Shown here: positions 248 to 30,669 of the stretch, piece after piece | Layout of the letters: each line of letters starts with the position of its first letter | How positions within the stretch are numbered: the first letter of the stretch is position 1 | Source of the DNA: Candidatus Omnitrophota bacterium | Lineage (GTDB): Bacteria > Omnitrophota > Gorgyraeia > Zapsychrales > Fredricksoniimonadaceae | Assembly (NCBI GenBank): GCA_015232565.1 | Contig: JADFZK010000003.1 | Coordinates: forward strand, 540-64,539 | DNA: 64,000 bases | Reading direction: 5' to 3' | Notes under the pieces: model-generated | Databases searched by the model: none | What the model saw: only the letters and a program-made list of their open reading frames with translations | Told to the model about the DNA's origin: nothing | Translations under genes and position numbers: made by a program

Positions 248-487
248 ATGCAAACCAGTGTTGTGGATCTTCGTTATCGAATGAAGGATGTACTAAAGGC
301 CTTAACGCGCCGGGAAAGGGTGCAGATCCTTTATCATGGGCGGATCAAGGGCGAGATTATTCCGGCAGGCGAGCCGGCGGCAGTCCCGGTTACGGCCCAT
401 CCCTTCTGCGGGATGTATTGCGATGACGTTCGACCGGTCAACGCGGTAATGGCCGAACTGCGAAAAGGGCGCTATCGTGCTCTTTGA
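248..487 (+). CDS. Small antitoxin-like protein (79 aa) upstream of and overlapping a VapC gene; putative VapB-type partner
   Basis: ORF with RBS; its stop overlaps the start of the downstream PIN gene (ATGA-type overlap at 477-487), as is typical of type II TA operons. Confidence 0.5.
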   Translation: MQTSVVDLRYRMKDVLKALTRRERVQILYHGRIKGEIIPAGEPAAVPVTAHPFCGMYCDDVRPVNAVMAELRKGRYRAL

Positions 488-905: not shown

Positions 906-977
906 TGCGGCTCTATCGCAGCTATGTCTGGAATTCTCTATGCGGGAAAAGATAATCAATGATATAATTCATTCAAC

Positions 978-1353
978 ATGAAAAAGATCTACATTGAAAC
1001 AACAATTCCCAGTTTCTATTTTGAAACACGTTCCGATCCGGAAATGATCGCCATGCGGCGCTGGACAAGATACTGGTGGGATAATTATAGTCACCAATAT
1101 GAAATGGTAACAAGCGAAGCCGTATTTGAAGAGTTAAATCAAGGCGAGTTTTCCTTCAAAAAAGATGCCCAGGAACCCCAAAGGCGACGCCTTACATCTG
1201 GCACTGGCAACTCATCATAAATGCGATTTCTTATTAACATGGAATTGCAATCATTTGGCAAACCCCAATAAATTCATTCACCTAAACGCCGTCAATGCAC
1301 TTTTAGGCTATTTAACACCACAATTAACAACACCATTTGCGATGTCAGGATAA
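978..1353 (+). pseudogene. PIN-like nuclease-domain gene split by a frameshift (frames 978-1220 and 1165-1353)
   Basis: Two overlapping ORFs together give one PIN-like protein (…DALHLALATHHKCDFLLTWNCNHLAN…); the frame change is near 1165-1220. Confidence 0.4.
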
Positions 1354-1665
1354 GGCCATGAAAAATAATGCCACTATCTCAGCGATCAGAACAACAAGAA
1401 ATAATATTTCAGCGAAGTTTGAACACAATACAGAAAAATTAGTGCGGCACTACATGAAACTACAAGAGAAACAAGGGCATAAAATCCTTAAAGCTTCTGC
1501 CAGTTTCGCACACAACTAAACCTTTTACGGAACCTGCGCGCCCTCCTGACAGCCTGCCGTTTTGACCTATTTACTATGGCTTCCGTCGCACAATGGGGGC
1601 GTCCTGGTCTGTTTGCATACACAGAAATATACAGTCCTGGTTTCCTTGACTCGGCCACTGCGTTC

Positions 1666-2313
1666 CTACTTGATGGCCGTTTTGGACGACATTGAAACTC
1701 CGAGATCCTGGAACTCCACCGACAGCTTGCTAATGGCGTCTTTCAGCGGAACAGCGTGGCTGGTGGCCCGCGCCGCGACATCCTTGATAGCCGACAGGCC
1801 TCCGCTGGTAAGATCGACGGATAGAAACTTTTGCACGTCCCGCAGATCAGACATATACGGAATGAAAGCGGCCTTGGCTGCATCGTAACGTTGAGTGATA
1901 CGGTCAAACTGCGCGGCGACTTCGTTCTTTCGGGCTTCACTGCGATGCCGGATGTCCTCATTTTTGATCATAGCCATTTCTTTGTCCCAGTCCTTGAAAT
2001 ATGCCGCACCCTGCAGTTTCATTTGCTCATCTTTAACGGTAACATCCCTGGCCGTCAGGCCCAGCTCGTTAACGGCACTATTGAAAGCCTTAAACTGCTT
2101 GCGCAGGTCGAGGTTGGGATTCAAGACCAGATCGTTCAAAGTGGAAAGCGTTTCATCGATAAGAACATTACCTCTGGCGGTGATCTCGGCAGACCGGTTT
2201 AACGCCGTAGCAGTGCTGGCGGCTTTCTCATACCCGGTAGTGGCACAGCCAACGACAGACCCAACGGCCACAACGCTTACAAATAACCCGATAATCAGTC
2301 TTTTAGTTTTCAT
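1666..2313 (-). CDS. Lipoprotein of unknown function (signal peptide with lipobox VVGC)
   Basis: MKTKRLIIGLFVSVVAVGSVVGC N-terminus; clean ORF with stop at 1666; lies outside the giant open frame. Confidence 0.65.
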   Translation of the reverse strand: MKTKRLIIGLFVSVVAVGSVVGCATTGYEKAASTATALNRSAEITARGNVLIDETLSTLNDLVLNPNLDLRKQFKAFNSAVNELGLTARDVTVKDEQMKLQGAAYFKDWDKEMAMIKNEDIRHRSEARKNEVAAQFDRITQRYDAAKAAFIPYMSDLRDVQKFLSVDLTSGGLSAIKDVAARATSHAVPLKDAISKLSVEFQDLGVSMSSKTAIK

Positions 2314-2465
2314 AGGTTCCCTTTTGTTAAGTTTAACCAAAGATCAAGCCGTCCCTCGACCAGCTTTACTGATTGATCCTAAGAGATTATCCAGGAGGAA
2401 TCAATTGTACTCAGGTGTAATAGCTAAAAGCTCGCGGGTACTTATCTTCAACAAAAAGTGCGCCC

Positions 2466-2536
2466 TTCATTCCGGAAACGTTAAGTATTTAAAACAATTG
2501 TCCGACATTAAGTTTAAAGTCTACCACCCTGTGTGA
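2466..2536 (+). pseudogene. Remnant of a VapC C-terminus (NVKYLKQLSDIKFKVYHPV*)
   Basis: Near-identical to the C-terminus of the 477-905 VapC (NQLSDIKFKVFRP), with no upstream PIN body in frame. Confidence 0.4.
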
Positions 2537-2581
2537 TGGCTGATGGCGTTTTCGATAAGATACGAACATAATGTGAGCGAA

Positions 2582-2950
2582 TTAGTGCGGCACTACGTGG
2601 ACTCGCCCGGCCTTGAATTTAATGCGTAACGCAAAACGATTGTTTTCGTTAAGGCAGATCACATCTCCGCCACAGGCGCTGATGGATTGAATGATAGCGG
2701 CTATTTGCGCTCCTGTGGCCGATGTTAGTTTCTCGAGCCGCTTGTCAGGCAGAGCGTTTATCACAAGATCACAAACCGCGTTGTCGCCATCCCGGTACGC
2801 TTCAACAAATAACTCCAGTGAAGTGTTTCTTATGCACTCCTGGAACAGTTCGCCCAATATCGCTGAGAACAAGCTTTGCAAATAACTCACGTCTAACAAA
2901 GCCCCGCAATACTCCCGGCGGCACAACGCCGCCCCCCAATGAATACCCAC
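2582..2950 (-). CDS. Hypothetical protein (122 aa)
   Basis: Clean ORF with stop codon; no family recognised. Confidence 0.35.
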   Translation of the reverse strand: MGIHWGAALCRREYCGALLDVSYLQSLFSAILGELFQECIRNTSLELFVEAYRDGDNAVCDLVINALPDKRLEKLTSATGAQIAAIIQSISACGGDVICLNENNRFALRIKFKAGRVHVVPH

Positions 2951-3002
2951 CTTGACCTGCGCCTAATAACCTTGTATATTTGAAGTCAGGTGAATACCCA
3001 TA

Positions 3003-3107
3003 ACACAACATCTGCAAGCAACATAAGAACAGGGACCACTTTGACCGGCGACGCCCTTGCTCCTTACCAAGCCTCAAAAGGTCCTGCCGGCCAGAAAGGA
3101 TCGTGAT
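3003..3107 (+). pseudogene. Decayed copy of the DUF104-like antitoxin gene (intact paralog at 6247-6468), interrupted by an in-frame TAA
   Basis: Nucleotide similarity to 6247-6350 (…caacatctgcaagcaacataagaacagggacc… vs …caacttttgcaagccacatacgaacagggaca…). Confidence 0.35.
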
Positions 3108-3284
3108 ATGAAAAAATGCACCAATTCTCCCAGGAAAGAAGCCCTGGCTGCCATTAAAAGAATGCGTGAGCTTGCCCACCGGATCCCTTCCCGCTTCACA
3201 AGAATGACCAAAGAACAGATAATTCTTAAACTGCGCGAATCCCGTGAGAAGTTGTGGGAGGAACACATTGCGCATCATTCTTGA
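3108..3284 (+). CDS. Small antitoxin-like protein (paralog of 31270-31440 and 32077-32256)
   Basis: MKKCTNSPRKEALAAIKRMRELAHRIP…KEQIILKLRESREKLWEEH; conserved K(D/E)QIIAKLR.SREKLW motif shared with the two paralogs, each lying upstream of a PIN gene. Confidence 0.5.
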   Translation: MKKCTNSPRKEALAAIKRMRELAHRIPSRFTRMTKEQIILKLRESREKLWEEHIAHHS

Positions 3285-3679
3285 TACCAATGAATTCCTG
3301 TTCGCCCTAGGGAAAGAACGCCAAACGGCTTCTGAAAAAAGTCCTGGATATCCTTATCGGGAACGAGAAATATTCTCTTTTCATACCCAGGATCATTTTT
3401 CGCGAAGTCCGCAATAATCTGGCTCCCATCTCTTTCAGGGAGTTCATCAAAATCACCGCCATTGCTCGAGTTGATGAAGATATCGTGATCCCTTTCTCCC
3501 TGGCCCACAAATACACCGCGCTTGGACTCAAGAACGCCGATGCGGGGATTGCCGCATACGCCGAATACATCCAGGCAGATATCCTGGTCAGTGAAAACCG
3601 GCACTTCCTCAGCAGCCAAGCAAACCTGCCCTTCAAAGTTCTTACCGCCGAAAAAACATTAAGACTAATAAACAAATGA
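3265..3679 (+). pseudogene. PIN-domain toxin gene, frameshifted (paralog of 31418-31828)
   Basis: N-terminus LRIILDTNEFLFALGKE in one frame; C-terminus …GIAAYAEYIQADILVSENRHFLSSQANLPFKVLTAEKTLRLINK* in another; matches the intact paralog. Confidence 0.5.
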
Positions 3680-3712
3680 ATCTTTGAATTTGAGCCCGGG
3701 CAGGCTCTAAAG

Positions 3713-3955
3713 ATGAAAGGACTTGCCATGAATATCAAAATTGTTCTGGAAAAAGGTGACGACGGATATATCGTTGCGAGCGCCCCTGCACTGACGGGAT
3801 GTTTCAGCCAGGGAAAGACGCAAAAAGAAGCCGTGGCCAACATTAAAGAAGCCATTGAGCTGTATCTGAAGCCCAATTCAAAGACCATCCGCCCCGCACA
3901 CAACACGCACTCCTTGGCAAAGGCTTCGTTTTCTTCATCGGGGCTTTCGGGATAG
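3713..3955 (+). CDS. hicB: HicB-like (UPF0150) antitoxin
   Basis: MNIKIVLEKGDDGYIVASAPALTGCFSQGKTQKEAVANIKEAIELYL matches the HicB N-terminal domain; paralogs at 31832 and 49171. Confidence 0.5.
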   Translation: MKGLAMNIKIVLEKGDDGYIVASAPALTGCFSQGKTQKEAVANIKEAIELYLKPNSKTIRPAHNTHSLAKASFSSSGLSG

Positions 3956-6135
3956 GCCATGACTCGCGCTTCGTGAATAAGAGTCAGAAGAAGTTCTTGA
4001 CGGAGGGATTGATCGGAAAGCAGTAGCGCATCGAAATACAAAATGTCGTTACGGAACGTTGCCCAGATAAAACTAAAAGGACCGGAACGGATCTCGATCG
4101 TATCACGAATGTGGATCAAGGCCTTCACAACACACGAATCGCGCGATCCCACGCCAGCAACGGCTTCATCACAAACCCGACGGAAATGCTCATCCCGCAC
4201 AAACACCCCTGGCGCACACTTCGCCAGATCCACGCCAATATTCGCCTCACCAGCATCCTGGCCCTTCTTCGCCCGATGCGGGTCGCGCTGACCTGGCGCG
4301 TCAGCCTGGCGTGTAAGAGCTTTTCGTTTTGCGCGTACTTCCCTGGCGAACAAACGCCTCAGTTCATTAGCCGAGGTAATGCCCTGAGCTTGGGCGGCTT
4401 TTAGAACAATGCCGACTTCCTTTACATACCAGGCCTGCCACCAGGCCATGTGGCGGCATTCTTCAAGAGAAGACAGAAAGATCTTCAACTCATCAGTCAT
4501 GGTCGAGCCCGCACGGTATATATTCCCCTCTCGACACGCCCGATACGGCGCGAAGAATGCAAGACCATAATAAGCGAACATAGAACGGGTGTGATTCTCC
4601 AGCAATGTCTGATAAAAAGCCGGATCCGAAAAGTCATCCTCTAACAAATATCCTGTTACCAGCACAAATGGCAAGACGTGGTCGAATTCGTGAACATCCG
4701 GAGTAAAATGAATCGTGTATCGAAAAGTTTCGTACGCGATCTGCTCATGCGCCGCGCGTACGCGCGCAAACGCCTGGAACAGTTCCTGATCACCCGCAAG
4801 CGCCTCCAGCAAACCTTTGAGATCCTCCGGGTTCCAAAGATCTTTTTGACCAACGCTGATCAATCCCGGAAAATGCACACAAGGATAAACAGCCGCCAGC
4901 CTTGATCCAATTCCATTGTCGAAGGGATCCAGCCCCGCCTGATTCCAAATCGCCCATTCCAGCAAAAAGCCCAGCACGGAATAACAATCCTCATTACGAC
5001 CACCTTTTAACACCAGATCATAACCTTTATTGAAAAACGCCCGATGAAACCGAACAACCGACAACGGATCAAAACTGCTGTTCCATCTGATCAACGCCGG
5101 ATCTGCGAGCAAACCGCGGATCTGCTTCTTAAATTTCCGCTTCCAGGCAGAAACCGCTTGCAAGCCTTCCTCGGTGGCCGTCAACGCCGCTACATCAAGA
5201 TAAGCCGGCAAAGCGGAAGACGACGGCGATCTTACAAGCCTGGCCGGGATAGCAGAACTCGCCGGCACAACACTACCGCAGACATCGGATATTTCTTGAG
5301 CAAACGCACGCAAGGCTTGCGCGCGCCATTTCTCTACAATTGCTATTAACTGCTCTGGAGAACTAGTGAAGAAAGCTTCAGACAACTCGCTATGTGCCGC
5401 GGGCAATAATTCATCGGCCTTAAATATCGCAATGAGCTCCTCCAGACGCGCCCGCGACGCGCCTGATTGCGGCACTGCCCGCAAGAACTCCAGGTTACGG
5501 ACATTGATCTCTTTGCCGTACCTGATCTTCAACTGAAAACGTTCAAACGCTCCCAGGAAGATTGCCGGCACATCTTCAGCGGTAATAAGTTCGAGATCGC
5601 TTCTTTGTGAATAAACAGCCATCGCCCAGGCAACGGCATACGCGCCCCGGGCATAGGCAATAAACTCTTCACGCGAGCGGCCATCCATCCCGCCCGACTC
5701 CTCCAGGCCACGCCAGCTGATCAACAGCGTTGCCCACTCCTGATCCAGATGCCCGTTGGCATAAAATGGCCGAACAAAAACCTTGAGCAAAGTATCATTC
5801 GCGTTGCGCGCATGAAAGAACGCATCCGCTGCCGCCAACTTTTCTGCTTCGGACAATTGATCGACCTCATCAAAGACAGCCCGGATGTAATCAGGCGGAT
5901 CAGTAATGAACCAACGCACTACCTCAACAACATCGGGATATTTCCTGGCGAACACCTGGAACCACGCCGATTCCAGCAATGCCTTGCGCGGCGCCAGCCT
6001 GCTACTTTCCGAACCGGGCACCAGCATCATCGGCAATACAAAACATAGAACAACCACCAGCAAGACTGCCGTACCAGGAAAACTCTCCAACAGGCCTGAC
6101 TGGCCCTGGCCCCTTAAGGGGAGCCGGCAACCCAT
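3890..6135 (-). CDS. Membrane-anchored protein with C-terminal conserved ~125-aa module (copy A, about 3900-4290)
   Basis: ATG at 6135-6133 (MGCRLPLRGQ… then hydrophobic segment); C-terminal DPHRAKKGQDA…LIHEARVMAYPES.DEENEAFAKECV module; boundaries approximate because no stop exists. Confidence 0.45.
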
Positions 6136-6246: not shown

Positions 6247-6468
6247 ATGACGCAACTTTTGCAAGCCACATACGAACAGGGACAACTGAAACCGACGACT
6301 CCTTTGCTCCTTGCCGAGCATCAAAAGGTTCTGCTGGCCCTGATCCTTACTAACGACGACACTCCCGGGCTTTTTTTGTCCAAACTGGCTGAAAAATCGG
6401 AAAGTTATAAGTTTCTTGATAACCCCGCAGAGAACATTTACTCGATCTCCGATGGATATGACGTATAA
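6247..6468 (+). CDS. DUF104-like antitoxin
   Basis: MTQLLQATYEQGQLKPTTPLLLAEHQKV…; lies upstream of and overlaps the MazF-like gene. Confidence 0.5.
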   Translation: MTQLLQATYEQGQLKPTTPLLLAEHQKVLLALILTNDDTPGLFLSKLAEKSESYKFLDNPAENIYSISDGYDV

Positions 6469-6823
6469 CGCTCGCGCTCTGAACTGCCTTACCCGCGGCG
6501 ATATAATTCTGGTTCCCTTCCCTTTTACAGATCTCTCCTCAACAAAAGTGCGTCCTGCAGTTGTTCTTTCTATCAATGAACAAAACGATATTATTATTGC
6601 TTTTATCTCCTCAGTCACCGAACACATCACTCCTTGTGACCTTCTTTTGAATGCCGACAACAAAGATTTCCCGTTAACCGGATTAAAGAAGTCTTCCGTT
6701 TTTAAAATGAACAAACTTCTGACAATCTCTTCTGCGCTCATCTTAAGGCGCCTGGGATCCGCAAGTCCCGCTCTGCAAAACAAACTTGATACCCTTCTTA
6801 AAAAAGCCCTCAATCTAACCTGA
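6461..6823 (+). CDS. MazF/PemK-family toxin
   Basis: RGDIILVPFPFTDLSSTKVRPAVVLS motif. Confidence 0.6.
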   Translation, partial: TYNARALNCLTRGDIILVPFPFTDLSSTKVRPAVVLSINEQNDIIIAFISSVTEHITPCDLLLNADNKDFPLTGLKKSSVFKMNKLLTISSALILRRLGSASPALQNKLDTLLKKALNLT

Positions 6824-9384: not shown

Positions 9385-10722
9385 CCGCCCCGGGCACAAT
9401 ACGCACGCCTCGGCGAAGGCTTCGTTTTCTTCATCGGTGCTTTCGGGATAGGCCATGACCCGCGCTTCGTGGATAAGCGTCAGAAGAAGTTCTCGACGGA
9501 GGCTTGGGTCGGAGAGAAGCGCCGCGTCGCAATACAAAATTCCATTTCGGAAAGTTGCCCAGATAACATTAAATGGGCCGGAACGGATCTCGACCGTGTC
9601 ACGGATGCGGACCAGGGCCTCCGCAACATGCGAATCGCGCGATCCCACGCCAGCAATGTCTTCATTACAAGCCTGACGGAAATAATCATTCCGCACAAAC
9701 GCCGTCGGCGCACACCGCGCCAGATCCAGGCCAACATTCGTTTCGCTGGCATCCTGGCCTTTCTTGGCCCGGTGCGGATCCCGCGCTCCCTCATTATTTG
9801 TTATTCTACGACGATTCTCGACCAGGACCGGATTATCAAGCTCGTTGGCTATACTTTTGGCGATCTCACAGATCTGGGACAGGATCTGACTAATACGACT
9901 TGCCGTTACCCCCGCGCCTTCTCCTAATTCTCCCAGCTTCTTGCATTGCGGTCGACCATCATACTCGGCCAATAGATAATCCAGGACCAATTGCATTCCC
10001 TTATTATTGCCATACAGCCGTTTAATTCGGGCCCGCAGACCTTCGGTCACTCCCTTCACACCATCCACAACATCCTGCAAGAACAACTGGCGGGAACGAT
10101 CTTCCTGCATATCACTATCCCCGGCCGCCATCTCCCAAAACAAGGATTCATTAGGAGCTTCCGAATCATCACCCTGTACCGGCGCATCTACAGACACCGA
10201 ATGCAATAAACACCCCGCTTCCAGCGTCCCCGCGCGCTTCTTGGCAATTGCACCCCTGGGCAAATAAACGGTCCCGCTAAAACTTCGAAAGAAATCCACC
10301 AGAGCGCCTTCGGCCCGTCTTTTGGCAAAAGTGTCCAATGACGCATCGCTGGTAAAGTTATATCGCTTTACAGCCTCAATATATCCAGCTTGAACAATAT
10401 GCAACCACTCCTGAAGATCGGCCCCCGCAAATGATTTATTAAAATGCCTGTAAACGATCTTCATCAGATCCGGTTTCTTCAGTTCCAGAATAGCCACAAC
10501 CGCCTCTTCATCCCCCTCATTTATCAACACCGCCAATTGCACATCCGAAAGCGTTCCCAGATGAGCCTTCCAGTCTGTAAATGAATAACCTTTCTCCCTG
10601 AATAACTGCCGTGCTTCTGGCGCTAAAGCTGGAGGCACTGAAGTCTGGTCTTTTACTGCCGAACCCACATCAACTGCCGTTGGCTCTCCAACGGGAAGCG
10701 GCGCCAGGATCTCCTTCTCCAT
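9385..10722 (-). CDS. Sigma-70 family factor carrying C-terminal conserved module (copy B, about 9400-9790)
   Basis: ATG at 10722-10720 (MEKEILAPLPVGEP…) verified; region-2-like AVVAILELKKPDLMKIVYRHF…YIEAVKRYNF and region-4-like GVTASRISQILSQI, followed by the DPHRAKKGQDASETNV… module. Confidence 0.55.
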
Positions 10723-13200: not shown

Positions 13201-13289
13201 AGGGTCCGGGACAACCGAGCCCTTCGCTGCATAAGAAAGATCGGCAACTGTCTGGCTTCCAGTTCCCTGACTATCAACATTCAAGGGCA

Positions 13290-16200
13290 CGCACTCTTCG
13301 GCGAAGGCTTCGTTTTCTTCATCGGTGCTTTCGGGATAGGCCATGACCCGCGCTTCGTGGATAAGCGTCAGAAGAAGTTCTCGACGGAGGCTTGGGTCGG
13401 AGAGAAGCGCCGCGTCGCAATACAAAATTCCATTTCGGAAAGTTGCCCAGATAACATTAAATGGGCCGGAACGGATCTCGACCGTGTCACGGATGCGGAC
13501 CAGGGCCTCCGCAACATGCGAATCGCGCGATCCCACGCCAGCAATGTCTTCATTACAAGCCTGACGGAAATAATCATTCCGCACAAACGCCGTCGGCGCA
13601 CACCGCGCCAGATCCAGGCCAACATTCGTTTCGTTGGCATCCTGGCCTTTCTTCGCCCGGTGCGGATCACCAGACAGGCTTACCCACTCCTGTAAGAACG
13701 CGGACGGGTCAATGCCCTCGGTGGAAAAGCCGAATTTTATGTCTGAAGCCCAGGCCGCTTTAAATGCCTCGGTCCAAATGCGCTGATGATCAGCCTTTTG
13801 GCCTGCGTCTAACCCGGCGACAGACTCTTGCCAAAGACGCTGAAACAACCTGGGCGCTGCAGCCCATTCTTCGGCATCGAAATTATCAACCGCTATTTGC
13901 GCGCCAGCCAGCGTAGGCAACACGCCTTCTTCCTCCTGGGCCACCAATAACGGCCAATATCCAAAAGTTTCTGAAAGCGGCCGGTTAAGGTCTTTAAGGT
14001 CTCGCTGTGCCCGACGAAGCAATCGCAATACTGATGGCACACGCAAAGCCACGCTGATCTGCGGTAGTCCTTGCGCCGCGGCTGCCAACTCGGGCGCCAG
14101 GGCGAAGATCGAATCCACCCCAACGACTTGGCCATATGCCAGCTTTACAGGCGGCTGTGCATTGGGTATAAATTTCCCGGTGCTCGGGTCTGACGTTTCT
14201 TTGGTATATTTCGACAACTTTACAAAATATCCATTCAACAATCCGGCCAGATCCTCACCGGCCAGATCCAAATGCAAAGCACCGGGATGATCGTAAAGCG
14301 TTTTACCATCCCGCACGGGCTTTTGTCCCCGCGATCTGAAATACATATCCACCGGAAACAGCACTAATGAATTTCTTAAGGCCTCTTTGATGTTTTGAAG
14401 AATTGTAGATTTTCCCGCGCCCGACGGAGCCGCCAAAAAGATCACTCCGCGCCGCGAGCCCAGGCGCTTCTTCCAGGCCTTAACCAGCTCCAGCACCTTA
14501 TGTTCACGCTTTCTGCGGTCCTTTTCAATAACCACAATCTGCTCAGCCCTGGCACTAGCTCCAGAAGGCCAAGTCGCCTTCGGGGACAATGGCGTCCCGG
14601 GCAACATGGTCAGGACACCGTTAACACTACCCAGGTCGTTTACTGAACTATCAAGATGATCGGCCTGAAGACCCGGAACCTTGAACGCAGAATGTTCTAT
14701 ATATCTGTAAATTTTCCCGAGTTTATGTATATGAACTAATACGGAAAGCGCATCGAGTTCATGCTGAAAAGCGTCCAGAGCCTCTTTGATAACGGCTGGA
14801 CCATCATTCGGCCAAAGCACAAAACAACTTTCGAGCGTAAAGATTGATGTGTTAAAAACATGATTGATAGCCCGAAGAATATGCCAAGGACCTTTTTGAA
14901 CTTTAACAAAATGTTTCAACTCCTCGATCCCGGCCTGGATCGCGTTGCTCGTCGCTGTAGAATATGGCTTACCCGCCAGCGCACTTATGCTCGCTAATAC
15001 CCGGCGACAATTAAGAATAAAGCTACTAACTGTCTGTTCTTTGTAAATGTTCCAGTTGTAATCGGCATGACATCGAACGGCAGCCTCGGGGCCGCTGGTA
15101 CGCGCCAGCCGGATCCATTCGAGGGCCTTGTTATAAAGCACCTCCCTTTCTTCCCGGGTTGAAGGCCTGAGGCAGACCACATCCCCTGCCAAAACTGCCA
15201 CCAGATCATGTTGATCTGCAAACCTCTGCGCCACCACACATTCCTCCCGCTCGGACGGAACCGCGTCGCGCCTGATCCCCAGCCATTGCTCGTTCTCCCA
15301 GCGCGCGGCTTCCAGAAACAACCCCCGCACAGCCCGGGCGCCCGACAATACAGCAGATTGCAACCGGGCAAACCACCTCTTATCCAGAGCCAATGGAGAA
15401 GATTTATCATTTAATCGTTCAACCCGCTCTAAAAGCGCCAAATGTTCAGACTTTTCCCGTTCGATATCCTCTGCTTTTCTAACACCAAATTTATCCTGAT
15501 GTCCGCGTTCCACCAGGCTCTGAATTTTCGCGTATGACAAATTAGGCACCGCCTGCCAAACACGCAGAACTTCCCTGGGAGGCGTAGTATCAAAAACACT
15601 GGCGTCATCCGGATTGATTGACGGCATTTGTCCGTTTAACAATAGCTGACGCGGCAAAATACGCGCATACCCCGATGACACCGGCGAAAGTATAGCCACA
15701 CTGGTAGGGTTTATTTCCAGAGAGATTTCATTTTGCGCAACCAAAACGGCGATCTGTCGAACATAACCCCTGGCAATGTCCACCTGATGTTCCGTCGCTC
15801 CCAACGCATATAAATGTTCCGGCGCGCAAGAAAACGCGGTCACATGTGCCAGACGGTCTGAACCAGTGACACATTCGCGCAGGATCCTGCCCAGGGCGTT
15901 TAGATAATCACGAACATATGTTTGCGGATCACCATACAAACCCTCACCCCAGGTTTCTCCAATATGACAAGTCATCCCCAATCCCGCTAAACGCACCAAA
16001 CGCGAGATGACAGAACCGATCCAGTTAAAATAATCCCGCTCAAAACCAATACTGCTGGCACCCGCCACAAAAGAACGCTGATCTACTGTTAACCCGTAAT
16101 AAAAACGCACGAACTCACACGCTTCGCGCACAGCCAATCGGCGCGCTTCGTAAGCCATTATCAGAAGCCCTATTAAAACGTCCTCATTTACTGATCCGCC

Positions 16201-17277
16201 ACGGGCTATTTGCCAGGTTCGCAGATCTTCCCAAAAGATGGCAAACTCACGAACCGACTGCTCCGGCGTAAGTCCCAACACCTTTATATCCATTTCGGCC
16301 GCCAGTCCAGACACCCGCTCGCACACAGCGGCCAAGGTAAGCCCTGTATACGGCGCCAGCAGACTTAAACGCTTTTCCTCGGGCAAGGACAATACCCGAA
16401 GTAAATGATCCTTGCGAAAGCCTTTAAGTAAAACGACCGACGTATGACCCCGCGTATCCTTCAATACACGCTGAGCCATACCCAGCATAAAAGGCGACAG
16501 GTCAAGATCGGTCACTTCGATATACCTTAACTCACACTGCCTCGCCATATGCATAATGCCTTCAAACGCCATGGCCGCACGCTGTTGCGGGTCACCGCCG
16601 CTGACGGCTCTGACGAACGCCACCGCGCGCTCGAACTCCTCGAAACGCGCTTTCTGCCGATCCCGCACGGTGACAAAAGCTTTTAAATTCTTCACCGCAA
16701 CGTCGAAGGCCGCACCCATACGATCGGCCGGAAAACCAACCAGCTCCGCAAAAGCCGCATCCGCCTCTGTTGGCAAAATAGCGTCCACAGGATCCGGATG
16801 ATGCATGTACCAGACAGGATCACAACTACGGCCATCAATAGCCCGGGAAGTCAGAACAAATCTACGACGAGCAACCGGATCATCAAGCAAGCGCGGCAAC
16901 AATTGCTCCGCATAAGCCAACCCGGAGACATGTTCATGAACGATAGCGTAAGGCAGCCTTGCCAAACAGGCTTCAACTGCCAACAACAAAGCAGGATCAT
17001 CTATCGCACGATCAAATAGCAATGCCAGGTCGACGAGAGAATATTGCGGCATCCCGCTCAAAACACCGGGTAAGCAAGCCAAATCGGGCTTTTCACCCTT
17101 ACCGTCGGGAGACTGGCAATACCAAAAAACCGGAGGAGCAGTGGTCCCTTTTTCCTGGGGTCTGGCGCTTAAAACCAGAGCCCCCTGTTTTCTACCGGGC
17201 ACCAACATGAAGGGCAATACAATGCATAAAACAGCCACCAGGACCGCTAGAACCACCGCCCCGAATATGCTTTTCAT
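13290..17277 (-). CDS. Multidomain protein: signal/TM, adenosine/AMP-deaminase-like domain, uridine-kinase-like P-loop domain, C-terminal conserved module (copy C, 13290-13680)
   Basis: ATG at 17277-17275 verified (MKSIFGAVVLAVLVAVL…); MTCHIGE and SINPDDASVF resemble adenosine-deaminase metal-site and C-terminal signatures; Walker A IFLAAPSGAGKSTIL at about 14410-14450 verified. Confidence 0.5.
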
Positions 17278-17289
17278 CTGCCCTGCCTG

Positions 17290-17928
17290 GCCCGGGCCAC
17301 TTTTGGAGGAAGAGCCTTTATCGGAAGGCACAAAGTCCTGTGAGATGATCTCAAGCTTGGGTTTGCCACCGGGGAAAGTGATGACCAGGGTTGTGCTGTA
17401 ATCACTGCCTTTCCATTTCTTCGGAAGCCCGTCCTGGATGCCCAAAGCCGCGGCAAACGCCGGCAAATAATCGTGGGTCCAGCACACCACCACGGTCTTC
17501 CCGGCCAGCGACCGGTCCGCCAGCAACGCCGCGGCGGTTAATTCCGGGCGTTCATCAGGAGACAACGTGCGCACTTCCTGGTTGAGAGCCAGCGCGGCCG
17601 GTGTTACGGTCTGCAAAGCCCGCACGCTCCGCCCGTGACGAGTGGGCGCAGAAGTAAAGAAAGCGGCTGGCGCGCCATTGGTACCCAGCACATCACCCGC
17701 AGTAAGCCATTTTACCAGCCAGGCGGCCCGCTGACGGCCGACGGCAGAAAGGTTCTCGTCGGACTTTTCCACCGGCTTCTCCGCATGACGAAACAGGATA
17801 ATCCGAGCCGGAAGCGTTTCAACACTGGCACGAGAAGCAAAAACGGAAGAAGAGGGAACTGTCGATTGATGATCGGAAGAAAGCGGAGAACGGCCGGAGA
17901 AACCACATTTTACGGCTGTTGCCAGCAT
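17290..17928 (-). CDS. Histidine-phosphatase (phosphoglycerate-mutase-like) family protein with signal/TM
   Basis: RIILFRHAEK (RHG/RHA catalytic motif); ATG at 17928-17926 verified. Confidence 0.5.
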
Positions 17929-18042: not shown

Positions 18043-18149
18043 CCGGAGCTGGACCTTTCCGGCAGGATGCCGGGTCCAGCGGAGTGCCGGAGCTGGACCT
18101 TTCCGGCTGGATGCCGGGTCCAGCGGAGTGCCGGTCCCAGTCAGACCGG
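18043..18149. repeat. Tandem pair of a 44-nt hairpin-forming element (CCGGAGCTGGACCTTTCCGGCAGGATGCCGGGTCCAGCGGAGTG x2) plus a short CCGGTC…GACCGG palindrome; REP- or terminator-like
   Basis: Stem GCTGGACC/GGTCCAGC read directly; further copies at 45878-45940 and 51983-52045. Confidence 0.6.
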
Positions 18150-18169
18150 ACCGGCCCAGTCGGCCGGGT

Positions 18170-18987
18170 CGGTGCGGCTCAATATTATCCCGCTCCCAAA
18201 ACGGAGCCCTCAAGACGTCAATAAAGACCGCGTCCTCACGAGGATAAAACTTGTGCATCAGCACCCCCGACAAAAACAATCCCGCCAAATACGCGGCCAT
18301 ATCGTAATTATCGAAAACACCTTTAACACCGCTGAGGTCACTCAGATCAAATAACGGACTACCCGCCTGGGAATATTCAACCCAAACGATCATACTAAAG
18401 AAGAATAAAGTTACATAGCGGCCAAGCTTGGCAAAAGCGATCTCCAAAGGAAGTTCATCAACAACATTGGCGAGACCGGCTATTCTGGCCCGACCATTAC
18501 CAACAAACACATACAACCAGCGAATAAACGCATAACCCAGAAATATCACACATGTAATACCCGGCAAGAACAGAAAATCGTTCAGCCACCAATGGTCAAC
18601 ATTTGCCCAGAAGCCGGATAACGGCAGGTACCAGCCCCGGAAATGCTCCCGCAGGACCGCAAAAACCGCAATAACAGCGGCCAGCGTCAACTGCCGGTTT
18701 AAGGCCCACCCGGAAGGCCGCACAACTGAACGATACTTATTCCCGGATTCCTGAAAAGCCAGGCCCTCAAGGATCCCCGCCAATACAACCACGACCAACA
18801 CCGCTAACGGAAAATATAATGCCACATCGCCAAGGATTTGGATCATCCGGTCGAGCGAATCCAGATTTAAGCCGCTCCAAAAAGAACCCGGCATCAAAAA
18901 GCCCGCCCCGGCTAATTGAGCCCCCGCCGCTTTACCCAGCGGACGATCGGATCGGGCGGGATCGGACGAGTTGACGCTCCTCCGCAT
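18170..18987 (-). CDS. Polytopic membrane protein
   Basis: ATG at 18987-18985 verified (MRRSVNSSDPARSDRPLGKAAGAQLAG… then several hydrophobic helices). Confidence 0.45.
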
Positions 18988-19044: not shown

Positions 19045-19272
19045 ATGTCTTTTGACCGCATAACCGCCGACCCTTCCATATGCCACGGAAAACCTTGCAT
19101 CAAAGGGCACCGGATCATGGTGTACCAGATACTTGACATGATTGCGGACAATGTTTCTTTTGACGAGATCATTACCGATCACTTTCCCCAACTGACCCAG
19201 GAAGACCTTGTAGCCTGCGTTGAATACGCGGCTTATATAGTACGAAACGAGGAAGTTCACCTTGCCCGGTAA
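19045..19272 (+). CDS. DUF433-family protein (antitoxin-like)
   Basis: DPSICHGKPCIKGHRIMVYQILDMIADNVSFDEIITDHFPQLTQEDLVACVEYAA; proper TAA stop. Confidence 0.75.
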   Translation: MSFDRITADPSICHGKPCIKGHRIMVYQILDMIADNVSFDEIITDHFPQLTQEDLVACVEYAAYIVRNEEVHLAR

Positions 19273-19633
19273 TTGGCGCATACTTTGCGATGAATGCGTA
19301 AGTTTAACAACCATCCAGGCATTGCGCGGTGCAGGAGTCAATGTCACCACGATCCTGGAACTTGCGCTGGCCTCAGCCAAAGACGCAGTCGTATTCAAAC
19401 AGGCAATCCACGACCAGCGCATTCTGTTAACTGAAGACACCGATTTTGGCAACATAACGCTCTTCCCGCCCAGCCTCCACCACGGCATTATCCTGTTACG
19501 TTTCCGCCGCAAGTCAAAAGACGCACTCCATGCCGTCCTCCTGGCATTAATTTCCAACACGGATCCCGCTGACCTGAAAGGCACCCTGGCCATAGTTGAA
19601 GCAGATGGATACCGTCTCCGCCAGTGCAATTGA
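19262..19633 (+). CDS. DUF5615-family PIN-like protein (partner of DUF433)
   Basis: Overlaps the DUF433 stop; canonical DUF433/DUF5615 gene pair. Confidence 0.65.
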   Translation: MPGNWRILCDECVSLTTIQALRGAGVNVTTILELALASAKDAVVFKQAIHDQRILLTEDTDFGNITLFPPSLHHGIILLRFRRKSKDALHAVLLALISNTDPADLKGTLAIVEADGYRLRQCN

Positions 19634-19789
19634 AGCGCCTGGCCGCAAGTGCCAAACACCACTACTAAGACCGTTATCGGAAGATATAATGCCACATTGC
19701 CAAAGAATTGGATCAGCCAATCGAGCGAGTCCGAATTTAATCCGGTCAATAAAGAGCCCGGCATCAAAAAGCCTACCCCGGCTAATTGA

Positions 19790-21045
19790 GCCGCCCCCGC
19801 CGCTTCACTCAATGAACGATTAGCGCTGAACCTTTTCGGCTGGATGTCGGATTCAGCGGCGTGTCCGGGGCAATCAGAATGGTCGGCACTATGCCCTGTA
19901 CCCGTGGACCATTCAACGTAACCTTGCCGGAAATCCCACAGATCGGGCTCTTCCGGTATTGCTTCAATATGTTTATCCAATGCATCCGGTCGCGCACTTT
20001 CGCGGGCCGGCTGTTCTGCCGGAGCTGGCTCTGTCTGTTCTGATTCTGCCTGGTCCGGCTTTTTGGGCTCACGGCTTTTTTCTTCTTGCTCCTGCCTCTG
20101 TTTTAACTGCGCCTCACGGGCGATCTCGGCGTCCAAGTTAGCTTTAGTAAATTCTCCTGGCGGCCTCACAGTCAAACGCCGGACGTCAAGTGTCTGCCAA
20201 TACTTCTGGCGCAACAACATTCCCGCCATCCGTTCCACAAAGACCGGATCATTATTCATAGCCCCGAACTCTGAGGCCCGCGCCCGGCGGATCAGATCGG
20301 CCTCCTCTACAAAACCCCGCTCGGTCAATAACTTAAGTGCATGCTCGTACTTCCAGCAATTATCAGCATAAAATCTAACTCTCCCGCCCAACCTTTCAAA
20401 CTGATCCATCTGTTGCTCGAGTGTTAAATCTTGCAACGAAACACCCGGGTTATTTAAGGCAAAGGTCTCCTGAAAAGCAGGATGGGAGAACACTGTCTTA
20501 ATATCATCCGCAAAACTTTTATCCACCGCGGCGGTATCTTCCGCCGTCCACTGGCGGTCTTCAGCCTTTACGATCTCAAAACGCTCACCTTCGCGCACTT
20601 CACGAAACCGGAAAAAGTGATGCAACCCCAGAACGTGATCCCACGCCGGTTCATACACCGCATATCCACCGGGTGCCGGACCCGCCAGTGTCGGGCACTG
20701 GCCATTTTCATCGGGCGCACCGAGCCTGTACCTTTTAAGCGTGCAATATTGTTCAACAATACCAGTTATACTATCCTGCAAGAACCACAACGCTTCCTGC
20801 GGAGAAGCCGGTGCCCAACCACGATCCCCATCCAAAAGAGAAATAATACTGTCCAAATCTGTAGGGACATGCGCATCGATCAGGAAATTCTGATGGGCCG
20901 GCATTAAGAAAGCTCCCAACAGATCGAACGCTTTTGCTACTGGCGCCGCTGCCGCGGTCACTTTTGCTACAACAGCCGCGGGACCAGTAAACCCCAAAGC
21001 GCTGGCCACACTGGCACATAAACCCAGAAAGTGCCTCCGGCTCAT
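19790..21045 (-). CDS. Tat-signal protein of unknown function with E/Q/K-rich C-terminus
   Basis: ATG at 21045-21043 verified; MSRRHFLGLCASVASALGFTGPAAV twin-arginine signal. Confidence 0.45.
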
Positions 21046-25900: not shown

Positions 25901-28900
25901 AAATAGACCAGGCCAACGACAGCCAGCCCGATCAATATCAACGGCCAGTTACGCAGCAGCGAAAATCCGCCTTCGCCCCGCTCTGGCGCCAGCACCGGGT
26001 TGATCCCGGAATTTACCGCAGTGCCAGCCGCCAGTCTTTCAGCAGCCGCCCTGCACGCGCCGCGGCCAAGGACGCTATCCCGGCCAGCCTGATCGATCCG
26101 GCCCAGAGTCAGCACCACACTCACCAGCCAGCGCAGGAGCGCCTCCCTTTGCCCGTTCTTATCCTGCTCCACCCAGGCCAAAAGAGTACGGCTGTCCTGG
26201 GAACCAAATTTGCGGGCCCACCCGTAGAGCCAGTTGCGACACTGCGGCGAGCCGGCCATTGCCGCCGCGTGCGCTTTATTGCCATTATTGCACTCCATGG
26301 TTAACAGCCAAAAACAACACTGTAGATCAACCAGGCGCACATCAATATCCAGGTTCGGGAAGGCACTAAAATTCAGGCCGGAAGCCTCGAATGCATAACA
26401 CCAGTTATAAACCGATTGCCGGCCGGTGCCGAGCGCGCGCGTGGCCGTAACTATATTTCCATTATGCCGAGCCACCATTTTGACCGCCAGAATGTTGCGC
26501 AGGACGTCTTTGACAGAACCGGCAATATTGGCAAACGCCTGTTTCATTACCCCATGTGCCTGGTCCGGGAAATAGGCGCCATTAGAGACCACCGCCAGCT
26601 CCCAGCCCGGGTGTAAAGCATGCTGAGTATTACCAGGCGCAAGCAAAGCCTGCGCGGCGGCCGCAAGCTCGGGATCGATCACCACTTGCTCTGCCTGCGG
26701 TAGAAGTTTCACGCCATCCAGGGCCACCAGCACACCGGCCAGCCATTGCAAAACCGGCCAGCGCCGCTCGTTGGCGTTAACCCAGGCGGGCAGATCGATG
26801 TCGTAGCTCAGGCCTTCAGACTTGATCCAGCGCGCGATATATGAGCGACACGCACCCAGTTTGGCCGAGGCCCTCGCCGGCACTCCCCGGCTGGCGGCCT
26901 CGGCAAATACGCACAAGGCCTCTTCCACCTCTTCCCAGGTTATCAAGGCCGGCAAAGCCGGAAAATAAGACAGCTCCACCGACAAACCCCTGTCAACTCT
27001 AAGGCGCCGGTAAAATGAAGCCGCCGGAACGCTGATCCTTTGCCAAGCCCGCTGATGATCATCACCTTCCGCCGCTAATGCCTGACGAGCCAACACCGCA
27101 AAGACCGCCCGCTCGGGCACATGCATCAGCCGGTAATGCCGGTGAGGATCATCAACACTATCCGGAAGCCGGGCGCCGATCAGGTCGATGTCGGCAGCTT
27201 CATCCAACGCTTGCCAAAGAGGACGATAAAAATGCACCTCGGCTCTCGGAACATCCAGCCCGCACTCGGCATGCCAAAGTATCGCACCATCCGGAAGCAT
27301 CTTGACCTGCCGCACAAGGACTTCATAACCCAAGGATGGATCCGCTTCCACCAGGATCCTGCCCGCTTGTTGAAAGGGCAAAGCCACCTCTGTATCAGCG
27401 GCAAAAATAGCTAGCCCGTGCATATAACGCCGCGCCAGTTCTTTAGCCCGGCGCACTTCGTCCAGGTCGGGGCGCGTGCGGGCCGCGGCCCGCAACAGGC
27501 AGGTGCCGGCAATAAGGTCTTCGACTATAAATACCCGCAAATGCTCCAACAGCCAGACCAAAGCATTGGTCGAGAAGGTCTTTCCACAGATCCCGATACT
27601 GGCCGCCAGCCTGGCCGCCACTGCGGCGAGTTGAACACTGAGCCGGGCATTACTCGCCATATCATCCCGCCACACCCGGCCGTCTTGACCGACCGCCGCG
27701 TATACATGCGATGCCTCGCCATTAACCTGCAGACCAAAAGCCATAGCCTGTTGACCAGCTTCGCTTCGCCAATAATAACGATGCCGTATTCCTTGCTCCA
27801 CCTCCGGCATTTGCAAGAAGCCCTCTTTACAAGCGCGCAACATTTCAATGAAAGGCTCATCGACCTCCAGCCCCTTTACTTTACCTTGCTCGATATAGGC
27901 CAAAGCCTCTGAAAGAAACAAAGGATGCTGACGATAAAACCGGTAAACCGTATCCTGCCAGGCCTCCAACTCACGATCCACCCAACAGCACTTTAAATAA
28001 TGCGAACAAAACTCATGAAAGATTATTCCCAGTGCCAGACAATCAGGCAATCGTAATATGGTACTGCTCAAGATTATTCCACCGGGAAAAGCCTCTCCTG
28101 TCAATTCAACTGGCGAAATATCTAGGGTTGTTTGACTCTCCGAAATGTAACCACGATCTGCCAAAAGCCTCAGCCAACAGGCAAGGTTGGCAAGATCACT
28201 GTTAGACAGTCCTTCTTGCTCTATCACCTGCAAACGTATACGGCCGTTCATCACAACCTTAAAAGTCGCCCGCTTTGCGCGATCATTGGGAGTAAGCTCC
28301 GTAACCCGCATTGGCATACGCGCCCGGCCCACCACCCGTTCGCCATTCCTGCGCCAGGCCGCGTTAAGATCCCGGATCGGTTGCGCAAAGGGCGCTCTGA
28401 CCAGATTTTCCTGGGCACAATGCAACACAGCGTCGGGAATAAGCAGGTCAACCGGGAAAATAACGCTCCAGGTGAGGTTGGCCAGCACGCCGTCGGCCCA
28501 ACTGACCGGTTGATCGTTAATGCCAGATAACGACATGTTATAAGTCCGGCCAACGCGATCCAAATGCGCGCGCATTGCTTTAAGACTTGATGTCAACTCA
28601 CGATTAACATAGGCAGAATTTTGCGCTGCGGAAAATAATAACTGGCCCAGTTTTTCCCTGACCGCCCTTTGCTCCAGACTTAGCTCTCGCACCCGGTTTC
28701 TGGCCGCTTGCAAGCGTTCTTCATCCTCTGTACTTCCCGACTTCCTGCCAGGCCCGGAAGACGGCCGCTTTCCCGGAACAGGCTTGGGAAGATCAAGGCG
28801 GCTGGTAAAAAGCGTATTGCCATCTCCCAACCCTGCAACCACCCCGAGCCTGGCCATCAGAAAAGCAAAACCATTCAAACGCCAATACCACCATGCCCAA

Positions 28901-29640
28901 ACCGCGGCCAGCATTAAAGCGATAGCCCAATGCCCGCCTGTAACGCATAAAAGAACGAACCCGCCCGCCAGGGGATCGGACTGGCAAACCGCACGACCAG
29001 CGGAGGTTTCTTTCGGGCTCTCGACAGGTGTCAAGACCGCCAGATTATTTAAAGTATCGATCAGCCACAGCAGGTCCTTCTTCATTTCATCCGGTTGTTG
29101 GGCGATCCATCTGGCTAAAGACGGCTCGGCGTCGACATTAAACCGGTTGCGCCAAACTGATACGCGCTCCCGGCTCCAGCCCAACAGCTCCACCATTCTG
29201 CCAGTATCGCCGTCGGTCTCCTCCAATGCCAGCCGCAATAAACATTCCCTGACATTATCCCTGGTCCTTCCCGTAGGGAAAAAGGAAAACCCTGTCCCGT
29301 CGCCCAGCATTCTTTGGGCCAGCGTTAAATACTTACGGAAGGTGGTATCCGCCATATCCAGCATTTTATACGCCGACTTCTGCTCGCCTGATGAAAGCTT
29401 TACAGCCTTAAGGGCAATAACGGCACACACCATATCATCCACTGATACACGACTATCACCGGCCCCGCCGAGAGCCTTGATCCGGGCCGACGCTTTCAAC
29501 AAAGCTTGCCGAGCCTTCTTAAGGGTTCTATTAGCAATAACTACGCCCGGAGCCTGCCGCGCCGCTACCACCATAGCCCCTGGACTCGCAGAGTGCTGGC
29601 TGGCTTTAAATAATTCTTGCAACCCGGGGTCTTCGTTAAC
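25900..29640 (-). CDS. Large protein(s) downstream of sigma-70 number 1: anti-sigma-like single-TM segment, then a region with weak LanC-like motifs (NGAYFPDQAHG, SVYNWCYAFEASG)
   Basis: Translation of the open frame; hydrophobic GGFVLLCVTGGHWAIALMLAAVWAWWYW after the sigma C-terminus; LanC assignment tentative. Confidence 0.3.
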
Positions 29641-30669
29641 CAGGCCCGCCAGGATCGCTCTTAACTTGACTTTAGCTTTCTCGATCCCCTGCCGGGCCCA
29701 CTCACGAGTTTTGGGCGGCGAGGACATATCCGCAATTTCCTGCAGTATCATTCTCTGGCCGCCTTCCAGGCCGAAGTACAGCACCAGAAAACGCCGGTCA
29801 AGTTCCGACAGCATTTGCAAAGCCCGGGCGAACAAAGCGCCATCCACCAAAGGAACATCACGCTCCGGGGACGCCAGCAGTTCATACAGACAAGCCTTAT
29901 CATCGCCAACCGGGCTGTCTAAAGAACAAGCCCGCTGTAAAGCCATAAGACGGAGAAATTCAATTACCTCTTCCACACTATATTCATGGCCGGCCTCCTT
30001 GAGCCCCGCCGCTATCTTAGAAGCCGATATACCGGGCCGGTGCAGATCTATGTCCAGAGTCTGATCGACACGCTTTTTAAAACGCCGCAATTTTCTACCG
30101 GCAGCGGTCTTCACCCGAACTATGCCGATGGCGGCTTCCAAAGCACTATAGATGAATTTCTTTATCCAGTAAGCCGCGTAAGTCGAAAACTTGCCTTTTT
30201 CCGGATCGTATCTCGCCGCCGCTTTCAGTAAACCCAGATTACCATCGGCAACAAGTTCCATTAATGATAACCCGGCCATACCTTCGAAATCCCGCGCAAT
30301 CTTTATAACCAGCCTCAGGTTACCAAGCACCAGTTTCTCGATCGACTGGTGATCCTGTGGCCGGGCATCCAACGCGGGTTTGCTGGCCTTAATATCCCTG
30401 CCCAGACGCTCTTCCTCTTCCTTGGTAAGCAATTCGTTCCCCCCAATGATCCTCTGGCAATACCATGACAGGCCAGCCAAAGCCAGCGCAGTATCATCAT
30501 TACTGCGCCTGCGCTCTCGCGCATCCCTCACGGGAACACGAACAGCCAGGCCATCCTCAGGCTCCTCAGTCTCCCCAGACAATTCATCGACAATATCCCG
30601 CAACGCCTCCTCTAGTGCCTGCTCATCTTCCGCGGGCACGGCCGTAAGGTCAATCTTGCCAGCCCTCAT
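29640..30669 (-). CDS. Sigma-70 family factor (number 1), core regions 1.2 to 4; possible N-terminal extension up to about 31190
   Basis: LRLVIKIARDF…GLSLMELVADGNLGLLKAAARYDPEKGKFSTYAAYWIK (region 2) and LQEIADMSSPPKTREWARQGIEKAKVKLRA (region 4); ATG at 30669-30667 verified. Confidence 0.6.

Follow-up and report, generated by a model that had tools for sequence, protein, structure and literature searches.

Giant open reading frames (ORFs) that exceed 20 kb in length have been found in 77 of 116 Velamenicoccia genomes, where they carry few annotated domains, are poorly conserved and encode many transmembrane (TM) helices; the ORF of Velamenicoccus archaeovorus encodes 39,678 residues with 42 helices (PMC10066038). 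Archaeovorin-type giants contain NUDIX, methyltransferase, peptidase and pyruvate phosphate dikinase domains, and the possibility of their proteolytic processing has been raised (bioRxiv 10.1101/2023.11.21.568195), while a "multi-enzyme metabolic cluster" class is overwhelmingly sequence-unique (bioRxiv 10.64898/2026.06.07.730766). Here we describe a 64,000-nucleotide stretch (the window) of contig JADFZK010000003.1 from the metagenome-assembled genome (MAG) of a Candidatus Omnitrophota bacterium. A first-pass annotation had singled out positions 13290-17277 (the segment) as a gene that fuses an adenosine-deaminase-like domain to a uridine-kinase-like domain. Our analysis places this segment inside a giant ORF of the same general kind.

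The minus-strand frame spanning 3307-64000 contains no stop codon in 20,230 codons, as opposed to 546-1167 stops in each of the other five frames (per-frame stop count), and about 620 stops (~3% of codons) would be expected by chance from the position-specific base composition of the frame. The ORF listing contains it as a single minus-strand ORF, 3307-63927, of 20,206 residues, and the frame runs on past the window. Its codon-position composition is coding-like, with a G-rich position 1 and a G-poor position 2, and its strand bias is constant, the coding strand having more G than C and more T than A. A codon-usage model, which was trained on the same frame that it scored, ranked this frame as the best of the six almost everywhere (stops were ignored in a second run); the low-coding patches coincide with toxin-antitoxin (TA) cassettes on the plus strand. 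A simple Kyte-Doolittle hydropathy scan identified 51 TM-like segments along the frame. Among the ~20,000 residues, only NUDIX, PPDK_N, Sigma70_r2, HTH_29/HTH_28 and Peptidase_M50 modules exceed the Pfam gathering score; second copies of PPDK_N and Sigma70_r2, which are weaker, and assorted P-loop matches were also found.

Like the described giant ORFs of the phylum (Archaeovorin-type, West-Roberts et al. 2023; Nielsen & Lui 2026; V. archaeovorus LiM), the window ORF comes from the Omnitrophota, exceeds 20,000 codons and encodes dozens of TM-like helices. It also shares with them the sparse, divergent domains (NUDIX, PPDK_N, peptidase and regulator-like) and the near absence of sequence relatives. 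Unlike them, it shows no domain of the glycosyltransferase, HEAT or dockerin type in the part that the window covers (20,230 codons). The Archaeovorin hallmarks, SecA_DEAD and the C39/S8 peptidase, were likewise not found in these visible codons, but may be encoded by the N-terminal part of the ORF, which lies beyond the window. The object is thus an Omnitrophota giant multi-enzyme ORF, a known kind, to which it adds an undescribed deaminase-kinase pairing and antisense TA cassettes that spare the frame. The main text of the two preprints (bioRxiv 10.1101/2023.11.21.568195 and 10.64898/2026.06.07.730766) makes no mention of a deaminase, a uridine kinase or antisense TA cassettes in giant ORFs.

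The segment itself (17277-13291, minus strand) translates without stops into 1,329 residues, starting with MKSIFGAVVLAVLVAVLCIVLPFMLV, which correspond to residues 15,575-16,904 of the giant frame. The features on which the first-pass annotation had relied are present on the minus strand: an ATG at 17277, the strong hydrophobic helix that follows it, the string MTCHIGE...SINPDDASVF (15586-15975) and the Walker A sequence IFLAAPSGAGKSTIL (Table 1). Its description as one signal- or TM-anchored protein, encoded by a single fusion gene, fails on the boundaries, however: no stop codon lies at 13290 or in its vicinity, and the segment is an arbitrary slice of an ORF that spans at least 20,230 codons. 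The proposed "shared C-terminal module" is indeed a repeated module, but it is internal to the ORF rather than at a C-terminus. Upstream of ATG 17277 we found just a weak AGGG, 6-9 nt to the 5' side, and promoter-like and terminator-like sites are no commoner than in shuffled sequence. The discrete gene for a "novel defence effector" is an artefact of slicing the giant ORF.

The first of the two domains is an adenosine/AMP-deaminase-like module. A direct Pfam scan of the window copy was negative, and homology was therefore established through intermediates, a family profile and structure. Segment residues 60-600, used as the query of a full HMMER search through 1.84 billion cluster representatives, retrieved 15 relatives (best E=4.4e-58; 33-35% identity domain-wide), most of which are 2,000-7,800 residues long. 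A word-seeded search of 5.8 billion proteins yielded no relative of the segment, and neither did scans of genome and metagenome contigs. Of the ten sequences in the alignment, nine match the Pfam A_deaminase family (PF00962; best 2.6e-15), the window copy being the sole exception, and four of the relatives (P0002, P0007, P0012 and P0013) exceed its gathering score of 27 bits. The NCBIfam adenosine deaminase model matches the window sequence with E=9e-4 and 18.4 bits, the cut-off being 510. The family profile matches 38 PDB sequences, nearly all of them adenosine/AMP deaminases (best 6II7, E=9.4e-12), with the HxH, HAGE and DD motifs aligned; phmmer of the deaminase region against the PDB sequences returned nothing relevant. 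An AlphaFold2 model built with the family alignment reached a predicted local distance difference test (pLDDT) score of 88.5 and a predicted template-modelling score of 0.89. When it was compared with the PDB by Foldseek, the top 40 matches all belonged to the ADA family: human ADAL (8QCH, E=2.9e-7), Plasmodium and enterobacterial ADA, MAPDA and then Cad1. The template-modelling scores on the target were 0.71-0.75, with up to 0.75 for Pseudomonas ADA.

Examination of the putative zinc-binding and catalytic residues shows a complete set in the window copy (segment numbering): H114/H116, H438/E441, the second-shell H478 and D557/D558. The set is kept in the aligned full-length relatives, and aligns with LHCH, HAGE and SDDP of Plasmodium ADA. 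The family-conserved motifs are ILHEHxSG, GISSxGxE, SHxGExW, RLAHxT, NPTSQ and SxNxDDSS; the corresponding motifs in the more distant relatives (ELHYHLDG, THAGE, RIGHAT and SSDDP) read as those of canonical adenosine deaminases. Thus the adenosine-deaminase-like call, made at first from the letters of the DNA, is borne out by the relatives' Pfam matches, the profile matches in the PDB and a confidently modelled fold, with all catalytic motifs intact. The domain shares with the PF00962 family (ADAL/MAPDA N6-methyl-AMP deaminase, bacterial Add and Plasmodium ADA) the (beta/alpha)8 fold and the HxH, HxGE, H and DD motifs. It differs from them in its length (~540 versus ~340 residues, an ordinary ADA being ~200 shorter, owing to the helical insertions), in its identity of 12-15% to solved structures, in its own basic motifs and in its location within a giant membrane protein. 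The basic motifs, ARRRF and LKGFRKD, are conserved and specific to this family, and several of their Arg and Lys residues (ARRRF, FRKD) suggest that the substrate may carry a phosphate, as AMP and N6-methyl-AMP do.

The second domain is a P-loop kinase. By phmmer against the PDB, it matches the Thermus uridine kinase 3W8R (E=6.7e-8, 35 bits; query residues 86-244 aligned), and the alignment runs through GAGKS, the Asp of PVDMY, YDHP and the RRAQRD lid. NCBIfam places it with the uridine kinases (NF004018, E=5.2e-13; TIGR00235, E=2.2e-10). The score for the Pfam PRK family (PF00485), 16.5-17.1 bits, stays below the gathering score of 22, and the other P-loop matches in the segment are also sub-threshold. 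The uridine-kinase/PRK-type call is therefore upheld by the 3W8R and NF004018 matches. As judged by these profiles, the domain is a uridine-kinase-family relative, not a demonstrable Udk orthologue or equivalog. Like Udk (Thermus thermophilus 3W8R; TIGR00235/NF004018), it contains the P-loop, D-x-Y, YDHP and the lid RRxxRD over ~160 residues; unlike Udk, it has DS in place of the EG that follows the fourth strand, and it is embedded in a larger protein, whereas Udk is a free protein of ~210 residues. The kinase comes about 355 residues after the deaminase domain, and the 330-residue linker between the two matches no Pfam family at E<=1. A degenerate LOG domain was considered for this linker and rejected: it has no Pfam support, and the similarity to the LOG-containing relatives does not extend past the C-terminus of the deaminase domain.

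The named relatives of the deaminase domain belong, with one exception, to the same phylum. They comprise two from Omnitrophota, MBZ0165200.1 and MBF0618773.1, both annotated as "LOG family protein [Candidatus Omnitrophica bacterium]", and one from Elusimicrobiota. Only two loci of the family were found among the GTDB species representatives; both are in MAGs of Omnitrophota, of which one has ORFs of 3,190 and at least 3,725 codons. In the four relatives that were scanned (P0002, P0004, P0005 and P0007) a LOG domain (PF03641) follows the deaminase-like domain; P0007 and P0009 are annotated as LOG family proteins, the LOG domain of P0009 being known from this annotation alone. P0004 is a stand-alone gene of 2,152 residues. 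These proteins belong to the same divergent subfamily as the window domain (31-35% identity domain-wide), with the same motifs and very long hosts, but their downstream partner is LOG/PF03641 instead of a kinase. Only the deaminase domain is shared between the relatives and the window ORF. In P0006 (6,608 residues; domain at 5013-5588) the catalytic motifs are lost (SSYVGGIR, ERLVDVA and SINPGMSS), and this degeneration indicates that inactive paralogues of the deaminase module occur in other giant proteins.

The first-pass annotation had also placed the segment in a "TA-rich island". The TA cassettes are real, but they lie antisense inside the giant ORF and not beside a defence gene. The five cassettes (Table 1) comprise eleven intact genes and one PIN-like remnant, and across their ~2.9 kb of antisense sequence the giant frame contains no stop. 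About 29 would be expected from the antisense stop densities of ordinary ORFs at Omnitrophota loci (Poisson P=2e-13). Shuffling of synonymous codons gave a probability of no stop of 0.03-0.32 per gene, with a product of ~1e-10 for a conservative codon pool. These shuffles and the background Omnitrophota ORFs were used in place of a control with DUF5615 relatives, for which there was one distant locus only. All cassettes lie in the two antisense phases that are least prone to stops, and 10 stops interrupt the equivalent frame of a PIN gene located outside the giant ORF. On either side of the DUF433/DUF5615 cassette lies one copy of a direct repeat of ~160 bp (18788-18947 and 19658-19820; 81.6% identity); it consists of host coding sequence, including a TM helix, and resembles a long target duplication or a scar left by recombination. 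The absence of antisense stops, where ~29 are expected, argues for selection on the continuity of the giant frame. We tentatively extend this argument, as a possibility that falls short of an even chance: the frame would be under direct selection for uninterrupted translation, all of the expected antisense stops having been purged, and ribosomes would cross its entire length of more than 60 kb, the ORF being either a polyprotein or a device for transcription-translation coupling. The TA modules would use the ORF as a safe harbour, or stabilise it, and the deaminase-kinase segment would be one cargo pair among others.

The interpretation that we favour, and consider moderately probable as a whole, is that of a two-enzyme module in a giant multi-pass-membrane ORF of Omnitrophota, with a role in nucleoside or nucleotide conversion. 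Its structural part, namely that the deaminase and kinase folds are real and form a module within a giant ORF of Omnitrophota, is nearly certain; for its functional part the chances are roughly even. The hydrophobic helix at residues 15582-15600 is followed by the next TM-like segment only at residue 18323, so that both domains fall within one soluble stretch of ~2,700 residues, which holds the deaminase, the linker, the kinase, the repeated module and ~1,400 more residues (HTH_17, Sigma70_r2). The two enzymes would be held together at the cytoplasmic face of the membrane, since the kinase needs ATP, and would act on nucleosides or nucleotides. The deaminase may use a zinc-activated water to hydrolyse an adenine nucleoside or nucleotide to its inosine form, and the kinase may trap a nucleoside as its 5'-monophosphate. 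A likely role would be the salvage or conversion of nucleic-acid breakdown products in a host-dependent or predatory nanobacterium, beside the NUDIX domain and the other P-loop of the ORF. The LOG partner in the relatives and the NUDIX domain in the ORF point in the same direction of nucleotide metabolism.

Several observations weigh against this interpretation. The window copy itself has no PF00962 match at E<=1, and the kinase falls below the equivalog cut-offs (48.9 bits versus 180 for NF004018 and 40.5 versus 220 for TIGR00235), such that its specificity may differ. None of the 15 deaminase relatives carries a Udk-like domain, and by this comparison the pairing is not a conserved functional unit. 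The charges that flank the helix are not decisive for the membrane side. Most Omnitrophota encode nucleotide biosynthesis (PMC10066038), which weakens a strict need for salvage. Cad1 and RdrB, the solved ATP deaminases of defence systems, are also detectable relatives. Finally, the window contains internal repeats of 380-1,700 bp with 80-99% identity and derives from a MAG, and assembly could therefore have altered the local order of modules.

The first-pass annotation had instead drawn an analogy to RADAR, and a stand-alone, TM-anchored deaminase-NTPase fusion that depletes or modifies nucleotides as an anti-phage or toxin effector, like RADAR or Cad1, must be weighed. The family profile also detects RdrB (8FNW, E=7e-9) and Cad1, Foldseek lists structures of Cad1 too (E ~5e-5), the superfamily includes the ATP deaminases of defence systems, the conserved basic residues could bind a triphosphate, and the locus is full of TA cassettes. 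The likeness to RADAR (RdrA ATPase and RdrB deaminase) and Cad1 (CARF-deaminase) is nevertheless confined to the adenosine-deaminase fold and remote homology. RADAR is a compact operon with the AAA+ protein RdrA, whereas the module here is part of one ORF exceeding 60 kb, and its sole NTPase is Udk-like, a nucleoside kinase domain of ~170 residues and not an AAA+ ATPase. Cad1 carries an N-terminal CARF domain, whereas Pfam detects neither CARF nor another domain upstream of the deaminase domain of the segment, nor any other sensor. In addition, the segment has no bounding stop codon, its best structural neighbours are the housekeeping ADAL and ADA instead of RdrB or Cad1, and in four relatives it is LOG that follows the deaminase-like domain, within long Omnitrophota proteins. 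PADLOC gave no defence-family match to the segment or its neighbours, and no rdrA or rdrB was found at E<=0.1 in the segment and both flanks. A defence function, and with it the RADAR analogy, is thus distinctly unlikely. The window also contains no CRISPR or Rfam feature.

Somewhat less remote, but still improbable, is a role in predation, in which the module would belong to machinery that an epibiotic predator displays on its surface or injects, and would alter the nucleotide pool of the prey (e.g., from adenine to inosine nucleotides). An action of giant Omnitrophota proteins on prey cells has been proposed, and peptides from the giant ORF of Velamenicoccus become more abundant on attachment (PMC10066038; bioRxiv 10.1101/2023.11.21.568195); the module comes after a membrane helix and its basic motifs are conserved. 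The kinase, however, would find no ATP outside the cell unless the module were delivered into the prey, and Pfam detected no secretion or translocation domain beside it. We are similarly doubtful that the stop-free frame is a transcription-translation scaffold from which the segment is made separately, by an internal start at ATG 17277 or by proteolytic release. This ATG stands directly before a signal-anchor-like helix and behind the AGGG, twin-arginine-like motifs occur deep in the ORF, and giant proteins have been proposed to undergo post-translational cleavage (bioRxiv 10.1101/2023.11.21.568195). A ribosome starting there, on the other hand, would meet no stop at 13290 and would continue to 3309, over ~4,650 codons; promoter-like and terminator-like sites are not enriched, and the repeated module at the supposed C-terminus showed no protease fold. 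Very unlikely, in turn, is that the giant frame is decaying or mis-assembled, with both domains as inactive remnants. The MAG source with its internal repeats, the stretches of frame that are merely the antisense of TA genes, and the degenerate motifs of P0006 would fit such a fossil or artefact, but zero stops versus ~620 expected cannot come from decay or random mis-joining, the window copy keeps all its catalytic motifs, and the codon-position composition is coding-like over nearly the whole frame.

Table 1. Positions of the giant ORF, its deaminase-kinase module, the antisense cassettes and neighbouring genes in the window
Feature	Position	Strand	Remarks
Giant stop-free frame	3307-64000	-	5' side open at the window edge; ends with TAG at 3309-3307
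Hydrophobic helix VVLAVLVAVLCIVLPFMLV	17200-17256	-	Giant-frame residues 15582-15600; Kyte-Doolittle mean 3.27, highest in the ORF
Adenosine/AMP-deaminase-like amidohydrolase domain, (beta/alpha)8 fold with helical insertions that are long	15478-17100	-	Segment residues 60-600; relatives, profile, AlphaFold2/Foldseek
H114-x-H116	16921-16944	-	Deaminase motif
SIGFE	16039-16068	-	Deaminase motif
H438-x-G-E441	15949-15972	-	Deaminase motif
RLAH478	15838-15858	-	Deaminase motif
EINPTS	15697-15720	-	Deaminase motif
D557-D558	15586-15621	-	Deaminase motif
Linker, 330 residues	14488-15477	-	Between the deaminase and kinase domains
Uridine-kinase/PRK-family P-loop kinase domain	13942-14445	-	Segment residues 945-1112; PDB and NCBIfam matches
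Walker A GAGKS	14404-14433	-	Kinase motif
FPVD977MYF	14338-14358	-	Kinase motif
YDHP	14275-14298	-	Kinase motif
Lid RRxxRD	13996-14025	-	Kinase motif
Repeated 127-residue module ('...LIHEARVMAYPE...EENEAFAEEC')	13288-13668	-	Internal to the ORF
Repeated module, copy	9400-9780	-	99% amino-acid and 98.9% DNA identity
Repeated module, copy	3904-4284	-	78% identity
Repeated module, distant fourth copy	36670-36945	-	Residues 9019-9110
PIN-like remnant (apparently frameshifted) and HicB-like gene (3713-3955)	3300-3955	+	Under the last ~200 codons of the giant frame
AF2212-like antitoxin / PemK-MazF toxin	6247-6823	+	PemK E=5.9e-12
DUF433 antitoxin / DUF5615 toxin	19045-19633	+	E=1.7e-22 and 7.7e-22
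Small ORF, PIN_3 toxin (31418-31828), HicB-like antitoxin (31832-32008), second copy of the small ORF	31225-32256	+	
HicB-like antitoxin / HicA toxin	49171-49632	+	E=7e-11 and 1.5e-16
DUF2959 gene	1666-2340	-	Pfam E=8.9e-11; product 100% identical to MBF0386466.1, a DUF2959 family protein of a Candidatus Omnitrophica MAG; downstream of the giant ORF
Intact PIN toxin gene	477-905	+	Downstream of the giant ORF

The repeated module that follows the kinase domain has no homologue among 5.8 billion proteins. Its AlphaFold2 model has a core pLDDT of 65-90 (61.9 overall), and no Foldseek match was better than E=0.9. The "HEARV" sequence of the module, a variant of the HExxH pattern that lacks the second His, was considered as a zincin-like self-cleaving protease; this candidate was rejected, as the module has no homologues, a moderate model and no fold match, and the HExxH-like alignment is poor. 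A loose pattern of a beta-strand followed by a helix with HExxH recurs about ten times along the ORF, at ~61227, 57723, 38955 and 28017 (residues 925, 2093, 8349 and 11995) and elsewhere. Larger intragenic duplications of 1.2-1.7 kb are also evident: 49637-50873 resembles 53762-55001 (89%), and 45781-47453 resembles 51886-53585 (80%). The duplicated segments match no Pfam family, and one of their boundaries (49637) lies 5 bp away from where the HicBA cassette ends (49632). An element of 66-71 bp with an internal 22-bp direct repeat occurs three times (18084-18154, 45875-45944 and 51980-52049; 95.8% identity), the copy at 18084 being in a different frame of the giant ORF than the other two.

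Other modules of the giant ORF include a second Walker-A domain and the NUDIX domain, both away from the deaminase-kinase module. Sigma-70 region 2 domains were identified at ~30140-30330 and ~10280-10480 on the minus strand (E=4.7e-12 and 1.7e-3), together with helix-turn-helix domains, an odd cargo for a surface or metabolic multi-pass membrane protein. The longest plus-strand ORF (28784-30064, 426 residues), which matches no Pfam family, runs antisense to the giant frame's sigma-factor-like part and is probably spurious, a shadow ORF. Twin-arginine signals normally function at the N-terminus only, yet sequences resembling them (SRRHFLGL... and SRRSFLKQ...) occur deep in the ORF at 20950-21042 (residues ~14320-14350), and two near-identical motifs of this type (...GISRRSFLKQSSQIAAAVGVVPALPMSAAQPAAV...) lie in the duplicated segments. 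Motifs so placed hint that the protein is processed, that translation starts internally or that former genes have been fused. Two further candidate domains were rejected: a histidine-phosphatase-like stretch just upstream of the segment (17275-17892), for which nothing was found in Pfam or the PDB, and an HxGH nucleotidyltransferase-like stretch (60100-60822), for which nothing was found in Pfam and the wider region gave only a weak, unrelated P-loop match in the PDB. On the downstream side of the ORF, the GC and AT skews at positions 1-3300 of the window are much weaker than over the giant ORF, and a synteny comparison with the nearest DUF2959-bearing species revealed no homologue of the giant ORF.

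The translation of the Omnitrophota giant ORFs and the role of their unannotated sequence are questions raised in all three earlier works (PMC10066038; bioRxiv 10.1101/2023.11.21.568195; bioRxiv 10.64898/2026.06.07.730766). The antisense-stop test used here is applicable to other giant ORFs without proteomics, and the deaminase-kinase pair points to nucleotide conversion as one of the activities that giant Omnitrophota proteins may carry.

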